Source of the DNA: a virus
Length of the DNA stretch: 64,000 nt
Reading direction: 5' to 3' (one strand)
IMG/VR virus record: IMGVR_UViG_3300009175_000013
Location: 1-64,000 of that record
In this document: positions 58,797-62,565 of the stretch, piece after piece
How positions within the stretch are numbered: position 1 is the stretch's first letter
Layout: the number at the start of each line of letters is the position of its first letter
The notes under the pieces: model-generated
What the model saw: only the letters and a program-made list of their open reading frames with translations
What the model was told of the DNA's origin: nothing
The model's database searches: none
Program-made: the position numbers and the translations under genes

Positions 58797-59558
58797 TTAG
58801 TACCGGTAAATCATGCTGGCATAGGGGTCATCTGACAACAGTAGGGCTTTCTCGTAAACCTCTTTCTGCAGCTCATACCCCTTAGTCTTCATGGCATCAC
58901 CATCCAGTGTCAGAGAGCCACCATCTGGACTTGGGATGCCACCGAACTTCCCACGGGCGTTGCCGAGCATGATCATGGTCTCGGCTAGCATAAGATCATA
59001 CACTAGCAGTTTGTTGGCCGGCGTACGCCATGTTGAGATCGCTGGGATATAGATCACGAAGACTGGAAACGATCCCTTGGGCGTGGGATATAGCCGGATC
59101 TTATTGTCGCCCAAACACTCCCAGTGACCCTCATTACCCAAAATGCGTTGGCTGAACCGGCGATATTGTTGCAGTAGTGTGTAGTCAGTAAGGATGGTCT
59201 GGATGCCAGTGATGTTTCCAATGTTTGCTGCGATAGACTTGGGGATACCGAGTCTTCGCCGATTTTTGTCCATTAAATCAGAATGCGGTGGAACCGAACC
59301 ACAAGATCGCAGGCACGCTTCTTCCCATGATTTCCCATGGTTAGCATCACCAGAAATAAAGTGGGCCATTTCGTCAGCCACAACATCGCCGGCGGCAGCA
59401 GTACAAAATTTATATTGTGATAAGAATATCTCCCCCGTGTTTAAGTCAGTAAACGCTCCCACATTTGCAATTGGAGCGAGCCTTATTTTTAGATTTCGGT
59501 ATAAATTTGCATTTGTAGTAACATCCTGCTCTCTGGGAATAGGCATAGTGGTGTTCAT
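58797..59558 (-). CDS. SprT-like metalloprotease domain fused to the C-terminal half of neck protein (gp13-like)
   Basis: aa 1-111: IFLS...VVADEMAH.....NHGKSW; from about aa 112: NIGNITG...IRLYPTP...LGNARGKFGGIPSPDGGSLTLDG. Confidence 0.75.
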   Translation of the reverse strand: MNTTMPIPREQDVTTNANLYRNLKIRLAPIANVGAFTDLNTGEIFLSQYKFCTAAAGDVVADEMAHFISGDANHGKSWEEACLRSCGSVPPHSDLMDKNRRRLGIPKSIAANIGNITGIQTILTDYTLLQQYRRFSQRILGNEGHWECLGDNKIRLYPTPKGSFPVFVIYIPAISTWRTPANKLLVYDLMLAETMIMLGNARGKFGGIPSPDGGSLTLDGDAMKTKGYELQKEVYEKALLLSDDPYASMIYRY

Positions 59559-60423
59559 GCGATACCTCGCTGAGTTCTTCTTTACTTTTGAACCATAATG
59601 TATAAGTTGTCTCTGGCTTAAGAGCTACCGGATTAACAAACTCAATCATGTTGGCATTAAACCCACCCAAGAATAATTCGTACCCAGCTTCACGCTCTTG
59701 TGCTGTCACTCCACGAAATTTTGCCCCAGCGTTTTTTGCAGCTTGAGATGCGTATAGATATTTATCTAGTGGTATCATGTTTTCGGCTGGTTTGACTTCA
59801 ATCCAACAATCTCCATTCGGTGATTGCACCGAAAAGTCCACAAAATACGTTCTTTGTTTGCCAGTTAACCTGTCAGCATATGGCACTCTAATTAGCTCAT
59901 AGTCCCAATTCTCAACAGATGTGTCGCTATCGAGTAGCAAAGCATAAGATAGCTCGTGAAGCGACTTGAAAAGATGAGGTCCATATCCATATCGTGACTT
60001 AGCTTTGTTGATTTTCTTGATGGTTTCTGGATTACACCCTGGGTGCCTATAACCAGTCTTCAACAAATACCTAAGCTGCATAGCCGCCGCCGCATGCTTG
60101 GGAGGCTTCTTTAGACCATATTTTCGAATTTTAGACCGGACAGTGTTAAAATGCAACCCCAACGATTCGGCTATGGTCTTTGCGTCTTTGTTCGCAATCA
60201 AGTATTCATTATATAAATATTTAGGGGTTAGAACTGATGTGTCTTTTCTGGTTTTAATAAACTCGGCATAGGCTATAGAGCTGTGGTTATGAAGCGAGGT
60301 ATCAACACCCAACTCCTTTAACTTACGTTTAACTGTTATTGGTGCACAACCGAATTCGCTTGCGCATTGCTTTAAAGTATGAGATGTGAAATACGCAACA
60401 AGTCGTGAGCAATCAATATTCAT
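59446..60423 (-). CDS. Free-standing PD-(D/E)XK (TnsA-like) endonuclease with HTH domains
   Basis: FKS..E......LD....V..WDYE...VPY.......YFVDF.......IEVKP; lower GC; own CAAACATA motif. Confidence 0.8.
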   Translation of the reverse strand: MNIDCSRLVAYFTSHTLKQCASEFGCAPITVKRKLKELGVDTSLHNHSSIAYAEFIKTRKDTSVLTPKYLYNEYLIANKDAKTIAESLGLHFNTVRSKIRKYGLKKPPKHAAAAMQLRYLLKTGYRHPGCNPETIKKINKAKSRYGYGPHLFKSLHELSYALLLDSDTSVENWDYELIRVPYADRLTGKQRTYFVDFSVQSPNGDCWIEVKPAENMIPLDKYLYASQAAKNAGAKFRGVTAQEREAGYELFLGGFNANMIEFVNPVALKPETTYTLWFKSKEELSEVSHEHHYAYSQRAGCYYKCKFIPKSKNKARSNCKCGSVY

Positions 60424-60459
60424 ATACTATGTTTGATTGCCCATTGTGTTATTAATATA

Positions 60460-61173
60460 TTAATGCACCAGTATCGGCTGGCCACCATGGCATCCGTAAA
60501 AACAATGTGCACCAACCACATATATTGTTGTGGTCGGCCCAAACCCAGCGGCCTTAACGTTTAAAATCTTGTTCTTGCAACCAACACCAATCGCCTCCCC
60601 AGTCACCGCTTTGGCTTCAACCCAATCATTGATCATGTCGTCGATACCATTGATTTTGATTGGGTGGTTCGGAGTGCACTTTAGCAGGCCACCCTCGTAC
60701 ACAACCTCAACCAGTTCTTGGTCTTGTTCGTGACGTTCTAAGATTAATTTGCGAGGTCCATATGGCGTTTTGGCTTTGAATTCGGGCTTCCACTCAGCCA
60801 AGTCCACAAGCACCCCATCGTCACGCAAAACCATCATCCCATCAGCAAAACAGAACAAGAAGCTCTCGGCCCCGAACACGTCGCCAATATTGGTTGAAAC
60901 TGGATCCCAAGCCACTTCTTGGACCCAGTAGGCATCATTGGGGAGTGGGTAGGTACTCACCAACGGGGTGCTGTAGAAAACGGCGAAACGCTGCTCTTTG
61001 GAGAGATAGTGGGCGATGAAGTTGCCCGTGGTCTTGAGCACGGTCTCCCACTGGTCTTCGCTGACTTCTACTTCTACGGAGGATAGACCTAATTTGGATA
61101 GGACATACTTTTTGATTGGTTCGCTGTCAACCTTCAAAACGTACGGCAGTTCAGACGGTCCCAGAATAGCCAT
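60460..61173 (-). CDS. N-terminal half of neck protein (gp13-like) fused to a Hint domain ending in His-stop
   Basis: IKKYVLSKLG...VEVEVSEDQ neck N-terminus; FLF|CFADG...CTPNHPI...ILVH*. Confidence 0.8.
   Translation of the reverse strand: MAILGPSELPYVLKVDSEPIKKYVLSKLGLSSVEVEVSEDQWETVLKTTGNFIAHYLSKEQRFAVFYSTPLVSTYPLPNDAYWVQEVAWDPVSTNIGDVFGAESFLFCFADGMMVLRDDGVLVDLAEWKPEFKAKTPYGPRKLILERHEQDQELVEVVYEGGLLKCTPNHPIKINGIDDMINDWVEAKAVTGEAIGVGCKNKILNVKAAGFGPTTTIYVVGAHCFYGCHGGQPILVH
60463..60852 (-). mobile_element. Hint/intein-like domain (130 aa) lacking terminal Asn and C-extein
   Basis: Block A Cys1, block B TPNH, block G ILVH immediately followed by TAA. Confidence 0.85.
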
Positions 61174-61811: not shown

Positions 61812-62039
61812 TTAGGCGTTCTCGATGGGAGGATCCAGCGGGGGAGCGTCGGCGGCTTCTTGGAACAGATCGCCACCGACACTATTTGGCTGCTCTTCTA
61901 CGAACTTGTCTGCACCCACTTCAAAAATAGTGACCTTACCAAAGGTGGCTGGATCATTGGGGCCAACCATAGCCGATAGGTCTTTCTGAGCTGCAACATC
62001 CACAGTAACTGGAAGGCCACGGTTTCTGCATCTTGACAT
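61812..62039 (-). CDS. Short paralog of the C-terminal half of 62137..62565
   Basis: RGLPVTV...QKDL.AMVG...GADKFV.EQ..SVGGDLF.EA...PP.ENA shared; GAGGTG RBS. Confidence 0.65.
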   Translation of the reverse strand: MSRCRNRGLPVTVDVAAQKDLSAMVGPNDPATFGKVTIFEVGADKFVEEQPNSVGGDLFQEAADAPPLDPPIENA

Positions 62040-62080
62040 ATTGCACCTCTGATGATATTTTTGCATAATCCCCAGATACA

Positions 62081-62108
62081 CCAGTGGCCCGGAATTCCGG
62101 GCCACTGG
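62081..62108. terminator. Perfect 28-bp palindrome (hairpin)
   Basis: CCAGTGGCCCGGAATTCCGGGCCACTGG. Confidence 0.6.
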
Positions 62109-62136
62109 CTGGGGTGTTTCTGAAAAGCCTGCTTGG

Positions 62137-62565
62137 TTAGGCGTTTTCGACTGGCGGAACGATTGGGGCTGCAGCGGAGGCTTCGGCGAAGAGGTCGCCG
62201 CCCACGCTGGCCGCCTGTTCCTGGACGAACTTGTCGGCACCAATCTGGAAGGTCTCGACCACGCCGACCAGAGTCGGGGCGTTGAGGCCAACCATCGCCT
62301 TCAAATCCTTCTGCGCCTGGAGGCCAACGGTGACCGGCAAGCCACGGGTAGCTCCCGCGCTGGCATGGCCCATGAACGGGCTGAAATCGGTCACAGTGGT
62401 AGTCCGGCCATTGTACTGGGTCCGGAATTCCGACCCTGGGACAACCAGGATCAGCTTACGCAGATGTCCGGTGAGGTTCTTGATCGAGTCGCCGCGGAGG
62501 TACTCACGCTGCGAACGAACGGTGCGGAAAATGTGAATTGCTGTGTTTAGGGGTTGGTCTGCCAT
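62137..62565 (-). CDS. Hypothetical late/virion protein
   Basis: AAGGAG RBS. Confidence 0.7.
   Translation of the reverse strand: MADQPLNTAIHIFRTVRSQREYLRGDSIKNLTGHLRKLILVVPGSEFRTQYNGRTTTVTDFSPFMGHASAGATRGLPVTVGLQAQKDLKAMVGLNAPTLVGVVETFQIGADKFVQEQAASVGGDLFAEASAAAPIVPPVENA

Follow-up and report, generated by a model that had tools for sequence, protein, structure and literature searches.

A neck gene of a freshwater giant phage is split in two by a mobile cassette that leaves a different domain on each half: a complete Hint domain at the end of the N-terminal half and a mini-zincin leader in front of the C-terminal half, with a TnsA-like endonuclease gene between them. The locus lies at positions 58797-61173 of the stretch analysed here (the window), which covers positions 1-64,000 of IMG/VR record IMGVR_UViG_3300009175_000013, and it is filled by three minus-strand open reading frames (ORFs), gene 1, the endonuclease gene and gene 2 (Table 1). 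The reading we favour, with slightly less than even confidence, is that both domains remove themselves and that the two halves assemble as a nicked, non-covalent neck protein. To our knowledge, every natural route by which a protein is rebuilt from two genes uses split inteins and requires Cys, Ser or Thr at the junction. The Hint-zincin pair may represent a hitherto unknown means of making a single protein from two separate genes.

The host gene was identified from its C-terminal half and from an uninterrupted relative. A tblastn search with the C-half returned jumbo-phage genes annotated as neck protein or head-tail adaptor Ad2, and an AlphaFold2 (AF2) model of an uninterrupted homolog of 249 amino acids (aa), P0019, matched T4 gp13 chains (9mkb, 9lu6 and 9lu4; Foldseek E ~1e-6, prob 1.0). 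Annotation and model support assignment of the split gene as a gp13-type neck, or head-to-tail adaptor, gene. Because uninterrupted homologs (246-249 aa) read across the break without a seam (...GAESFLF/NIGNISGIQ..., the slash marking the break), with nothing added or missing, the cassette sits between two adjacent residues, F107 of gene 1 and Asn112 of gene 2 (F107/N112), and the predicted junction is exact. The insertion point falls within the most conserved motif of the neck protein (GAESFLFNIGNI[ST]GIQ), and Asn112 is invariant in split and uninterrupted homologs alike. In the P0019 model the junction lies at a low-confidence helix-turn-helix hinge between an N-terminal sub-domain and a C-terminal one.

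The domain that follows F107 resembles a whole intein-type domain rather than a fragment of one. A profile of 19 gene 1 proteins matches two inteins, VidaL and NrdJ-1, as well as the bacterial intein-like (BIL) domain 2lwy, and its alignment with 2lwy reaches the ...LVH of that domain, one residue short of its end. The Atlas model of residues 108-237 is similar to intein-bearing terminases, UvsX and PT-HINT clusters (template modelling score, TM, 0.80-0.83). With the alignment to LVH and a TM of 0.8 over residues 108-237, the Hint fold is complete within gene 1 alone. Position 1 is Cys in 17 of the 19 sequences and Ser in the other two (L008 and L011); T167 never varies, and at least 90% of the sequences retain N169 and H170. 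Tested as a class 1 intein, the domain has the N-terminal Cys/Ser nucleophile and the block B TxxH. It has no terminal His-Asn, since the chain stops at His237 (18 of the 19 sequences end His-stop; that of L001 ends Ser-stop), and the first C-extein residue is the invariant Asn112, not Cys, Ser or Thr. Nor does gene 2 begin with a C-intein fragment; its leader has a zincin fold. Canonical splicing, in cis or by a split intein in trans, is excluded, since the chain lacks a terminal Asn, a C-intein is missing and the +1 residue is Asn. The stop after the Hint His holds the same position in 10/10 loci, where TAA, TAG and TGA are all in use. His-stop in 18/19 sequences with three different stop codons indicates that the termination point itself is under selection.

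The extent of the gene 2 leader depends on the choice of start codon. Public gene calls place the start at GTG V33 (P0001, 221 aa), which excludes window positions 59463-59558 and removes the first conserved zincin strand (KIRLAPI). Since this conserved strand lies upstream of V33, and a GAGG stands 6 nt before the ATG at 59558, the ATG is supported as the better start. The window's copy of the leader on its own matches no Pfam model; across 13 members of its family, Pfam SprT-like matches seven and WLM matches others. The family profile matches proabylysin (4jiu, E 1.1e-4) and also projannalysin and selecase. Gene 2 was modelled with AF2; averaged within blocks of 10 residues, the predicted local distance difference test value (pLDDT) is 77-92 across aa 21-110. 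The zincin part of this model has 4jiu as its top Foldseek match (prob 1.0) and aligns in VIA-align with 4jiu (Z 6.5) and SPRTN (Z 6.0), and the Atlas structure model is close to SprT-like and YgjP-like clusters (TM 0.55-0.61; SprT-like 0.61). A predicted complex of Hint (aa 100-237) with the zincin (aa 21-125) scored 0.00, which is evidence neither way.

The catalytic motif of the leader is kept across its family. E63, H66 and H74 are invariant in the family alignment. A zincin fusion is present in 83 of the best 120 clusters (90% identity) of gene 2 homologs; another 33 are uninterrupted. [HD]ExxH is found in 83/83 fused clusters, with His as first ligand in 59 and Asp, as in the window's copy, in 24. 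The third His follows at +8 in 73 clusters and at +7 in seven more. The distance from motif to junction is held within 43-55 aa across the 83, and residues P3-P1 before the junction are mostly I-A-A. As to class, the family level shows HExxH (59/83 clusters) and a third His at +8, and the window's copy reads DEMAH with a fold match to 4jiu, SPRTN and SprT-like. Profile and models thus support a SprT/minigluzincin-type zincin, for which zinc binding and activity are predicted. An earlier note on this DNA, made from its letters, had described a gp13-like neck gene fractured at FLF/NIGN, an essentially complete Hint domain without its terminal Asn, and a gene 2 with an N-terminal SprT/zincin domain in place of a C-intein. 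All of this is borne out by the results above, and re-reading of the ORFs returned the same coordinates and motifs for both genes, including the Asn codon.

The arrangement recurs well beyond the window. In a comparison of 71 related IMG/VR loci, the N-half with Hint, the nuclease and the zincin with C-half were found at the identical site in at least 11 divergent loci from different metagenomes (L001-L004, L007-L009, L011, L012, L016 and L069), and zincin-fused C-halves were seen in L010, L013 and L023. Wherever a locus shows both of its sides, Hint and zincin occur together; this holds for 10 loci, the window's among them, and in L010, too, they are paired, with the halves ~5 kb apart. The whole stretch is also covered without indel by Logan contigs from two separate studies. 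Given these contigs and the same architecture at the same site in different metagenomes, the split is neither chance nor misassembly. Identity to the window's copy is low for both Hint (32-65%) and zincin (25-56%), and the split arrangement is therefore old. No other neck copy was found within the window's record, which is ~20% complete. In G003, the complete genome behind L001 (341 kb with terminal repeats; CheckV 100%), the two halves are the sole neck gene, and because of this the split gene must work. The earlier note had named misassembly and an intact gp13 elsewhere in the genome as what would overturn its reading and had proposed looking for further Hint-His-stop genes with SprT-fused C-halves; its case came through on all three counts.

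Hint and zincin are maintained by selection. For these two domains the proportion of nonsynonymous differences (pN) is 0.28-0.45 against 0.59-0.89 for synonymous ones (pS), in support of purifying selection; synonymous sites are saturated, and the ratio of the corresponding rates (dN/dS) is usable only as pN < pS and as upper bounds. The exteins are more constrained (pN 0.13-0.33, pS ~0.8-0.9). These data bear on the idea that the leader is no autoprotease and only the Hint domain self-cleaves. The zincin-like part would then serve for docking or as a chaperone, or would be a degenerate remnant, and it would either be kept on the C-half or be removed by another protease. We consider this improbable. 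SprT/Wss1-type enzymes normally cut other proteins, and the window's copy is of the DExxH form with no Pfam match of its own. Such a role would hardly account for the invariant E63, H66 and H74, for [HD]ExxH in every fused cluster with the next His at +7/+8 in 80, or for the constrained tail length and pN < pS; the 24 clusters of the DExxH subgroup retain the remainder of the motif.

The same data speak to repair of the break at the level of nucleic acid or translation, by an intron, by ribosomal bypass or by a +1 shift to His-Asn, and to a dead split gene whose function is taken by another neck protein; these we hold to be very improbable. Skipping one T after CAT in the window would indeed give His-Asn-Ile. 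However, the +1 reading of the sequence after the stop yields Asn in only 2/8 loci examined, and a frameshift or readthrough restoring His-Asn was rejected as not conserved. Intron splicing and ribosomal bypass are disfavoured because the intervening DNA is variable (the endonuclease is inverted in L008 and L011, L007 carries 1.8 kb of extra DNA, and L010 has the ~5 kb gap) and because Hint and zincin are conserved as proteins. Strong purifying selection on the exteins counts against these ideas as well, as does the absence of a second neck copy from the complete genome G003. Both a non-catalytic leader and nucleic-acid-level repair fit the conservation data poorly.

The cassette is mobile and has moved between neck lineages, since its distribution over the neck tree is patchy and its own tree disagrees with that of the neck. 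At least seven gains or losses are needed to account for the split state on a neck tree of 52 rows. L009 groups with L007 and L069 in the cassette tree (96/97) and falls in the opposite clade (100/100) of the neck tree. L008 and L011 form a cassette sub-type of their own, with Ser at Hint position 1, the endonuclease on the opposite strand and a separate cassette-tree clade (100/99). The likely agent of mobility is the endonuclease. It matches Pfam PF08722 (Tn7_TnsA-like_N; E 1.7e-9, 38.6 bits against a cutoff of 26.5), and nine further distinct loci have a homolog between the neck halves, which in L008 and L011 is encoded on the opposite strand. A nuclease domain above cutoff and signs of cassette mobility are both present, and we regard the protein as a putative homing endonuclease.

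Taken together, our favoured reading of self-removal and nicked assembly would run as follows. A mobile cassette of Hint domain, TnsA-like homing endonuclease gene and mini-zincin would have entered the neck gene in frame at F107/N112 and made it two genes, both translated as precursors. The Hint domain would begin as an intein does: at Cys108 an N-to-S acyl shift would give an F107-Cys108 thioester, and water or a small thiol would resolve the thioester and free an N-half ending in ...FLF. The mini-zincin would place its own C-terminal tail (...GIPxxIAA) in its active site and cut in cis before Asn112, and the C-half would be freed with its native first residue. The two scar-free halves would then co-fold and join the neck ring as a nicked non-covalent protein, and the endonuclease would spread the cassette by homing into uninterrupted neck alleles. 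What we infer is that each domain cleaves, where exactly the zincin cuts, and that the halves are not re-ligated. In proabylysin, the nearest solved relative, the C-terminal tail lies in the protein's own active-site cleft with its last residue on the zinc (PMC5557861); by analogy, the leader tail could present the A111/N112 bond to its own active site.

Halves of endonuclease-fractured genes that carry no intein are known to function together non-covalently, as the nicked neck protein would. Dassa et al. 2009 describe an SbcD-like locus of this kind and cite the gp43 polymerase gene of Aeromonas phage 25, which is also fractured (PMC2677866). As in these two cases, two ORFs of the neck locus are presumed to make one functional protein without covalent rejoining. 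The break in the SbcD-like locus carries short extra residues (25 + 9 aa), with no catalytic domain described (PMC2677866), whereas both junction domains of the neck gene are conserved, catalytic-looking modules.

Several points weigh against this reading. Its support comes from sequence and models, and the window's copy has Asp at the first zinc-binding His and no Pfam match alone. Self-removal does not explain why the Hint domain ends exactly after His (18/19, three stop codons), nor why the N-half carries a thioester-forming domain rather than any protease. A nick inside the most conserved motif of the neck protein might also be costly.

The latter points would be accounted for if the halves were ligated in trans, which we think unlikely, though a good deal less so than a non-catalytic leader. 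F107 would be activated by the Hint domain as a thioester, or as an oxyester where position 1 is Ser, and the self-cleaving zincin on the second chain would expose the alpha-amine of Asn112. The folded halves would hold this amine beside the thioester, and aminolysis would yield a native, scarless F107-N112 bond without Cys, Ser or Thr; by stopping at His, the Hint domain would leave its Asn/+1 pocket open for the incoming N-terminus. All evidence for processing fits this scheme equally. Further in its favour are the stop strictly after His despite 32-65% Hint identity and three stop codons, the two junctions flush with native residues, as a scarless product would need, the place of insertion, which, as with most true inteins, is the best-conserved motif of the protein, and the commonness of the element (83 of the best 120 clusters). 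It would account for both the choice of a thioester-forming domain and the tolerance of an insertion in that motif. The parts of the chemistry have precedents: Hedgehog resolves a Hint thioester with an external nucleophile, cholesterol, and in sortases and asparaginyl-endopeptidase ligases an alpha-amine attacks an enzyme thioester. However, we know of no case in which the N-terminus of a protein aminolyses a Hint thioester without having a 1,2-aminothiol. Aminolysis would face competition from hydrolysis or thiolysis, and the oxyester expected from Ser1 in L008 and L011 would be less reactive towards amines. Ligation is chemically conceivable; self-removal with nicked assembly fits the data equally well and needs no new chemistry.

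The closest known counterparts are the fractured genes described by Dassa et al., in which split-intein halves flank a free-standing homing endonuclease gene (PMC2677866). The likeness lies in a phage gene cut at a conserved site, a free-standing endonuclease between the halves that overlaps the downstream ORF, and an element-derived domain capping each half (PMC2677866). The cases described there have a Hint domain split into N- and C-intein, with Cys, Ser or Thr at +1, whereas here the whole Hint domain (minus Asn) is on the N-half and +1 is Asn; they have the C-intein on the C-half, where the neck gene has an unrelated zinc protease; and their endonucleases are GIY-YIG or Vsr-like, not TnsA-like (PMC2677866).

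Each domain also has relatives outside fractured genes. Like BIL (2lwy), PT-HINT and Hedgehog domains, the neck Hint domain combines an N-terminal Cys/Ser with TxxH, needs no +1 nucleophile and would have its thioester resolved from outside. Those domains act within one polypeptide, whereas here Hint is on a separate chain from the protease-capped partner half; we know of no BIL, PT-HINT or Hedgehog domain paired with a protease-capped partner that encodes the rest of the same protein. The leader shares with minigluzincins and SprT/Wss1 proteins (proabylysin 4jiu, projannalysin 4jix, selecase, SPRTN 6mdx) a length of ~90 aa, a three-stranded sheet, the HExxH helix and a third His ~8 residues on. 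Unlike them it is fused to half of a structural protein, has Asp as first ligand in 24/83 clusters and presumably releases itself.

Even in the conservative reading, the cassette, with its pairing of two unrelated self-cleaving domains, would stand for a new class of mobile elements akin to inteins. A selfish element, common among freshwater giant phages, persists in an essential structural gene through a different domain pair at an Asn junction. Were the halves re-ligated, the chemistry would be new to protein ligation and would plainly lend itself to a tool for nucleophile-independent, scarless joining. A full-text literature search found no published description of a Hint-plus-zincin fractured gene.

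Searches for the element elsewhere led back to the neck gene. A search of 1.84 billion representatives with the zincin profile found no cassette in a second host gene at this sensitivity; its 112 matches are neck fusions or their fragments, small SprT-like proteins of a generic kind, and a pair of large proteins of membrane type. The latter, P0144 (661 aa) and P0169 (577 aa), are rich in hydrophobic and coiled-coil-like segments, with a C-terminal mini-zincin near that of the cassette (profile E 8e-8 and 5e-5), and may point to the source of the domain. A Hint word search returned neck N-halves only, with no other host gene at this sensitivity, and no single-chain form carrying the whole element was seen among proteins >443 aa, which is weak evidence. 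The homologs carry a precomputed assignment to Pfam PF26809. One zincin-fused neck C-half (P0109) is filed in NCBI under a Candidatus Lokiarchaeota metagenome-assembled genome; its 12.6-kb contig is more likely a binned phage contig than the site of an archaeal gene.

Table 1. Features of the split neck locus in the window
Feature	Position	Strand	Basis or remark
Gene 1	60460-61173	minus	237 aa; GGAGG Shine-Dalgarno
Neck N-half, gp13-type (gene 1 aa 1-107, end ...GAESFLF)	60853..61173	minus	48-77% identity to N-halves in related loci, split and uninterrupted
Complete Hint domain (gene 1 aa 108-237, 130 aa)	60463..60852	minus	profile and structure matches
Predicted Hint nucleophile Cys108	codon 60852-60850	minus	directly after ...ESFLF
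Hint block B T167-P-N-H170 (CTPNH = aa 166-170)	60675-60664	minus	sequence motif
Terminal I-L-V-H237 of Hint	His codon 60465-60463	minus	chain end
TAA stop right after penultimate-type His, without Asn or C-extein	60460..60462	minus	same stop position in 10/10 loci
TnsA-like PD-(D/E)xK endonuclease (putative homing endonuclease), free-standing, N-terminal helix-turn-helix modules	59446-60423	minus	325 aa
Gene 2	58797-59558	minus	253 aa; overlaps 3' end of nuclease gene by 113 nt
Shine-Dalgarno GAGG of gene 2	59568-59565	minus	6 nt before ATG at 59558
Mini-zincin leader, SprT/minigluzincin-like (gene 2 aa 1-111, tail ...GIPKSIAA111)	59226..59558	minus	family profile, fold matches
Zincin motif D62-E63-M-A-H66	59375-59361	minus	sequence motif
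Predicted third ligand H74 (H74-G-K-S-W)	59339-37	minus	sequence motif
Asn112, first neck residue of C-half	codon 59225-59223	minus	alignment with neck homologs
Neck C-half (gene 2 aa 112-253, start N-I-G-N-I-T-G) and stop	58797..59225	minus	46-80% identity to C-halves in related loci

The best PHROG matches of the endonuclease (phrog_218 and phrog_14892) are labelled 'head closure', which looks like carry-over from nucleases embedded in head-tail connector genes and not a structural role. A distant relative of the endonuclease (25% identity) is encoded at L052:5582-6232, free-standing just downstream of an uninterrupted neck gene, and likewise in L053 and L054; it could represent an intronless-homing stage or an independent nuclease with the same target region. 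Just downstream of the neck locus, the window encodes a gp15-like sheath stabiliser and the tail sheath. Upstream of the neck module, 61812-62565 holds two neighbouring ORFs on the minus strand (159 and 142 aa) whose C-terminal segments of ~70 aa are very similar (GLPVTV...GADKFV.EQ...VGGDLF), which resembles a tandem duplication of a small gene.

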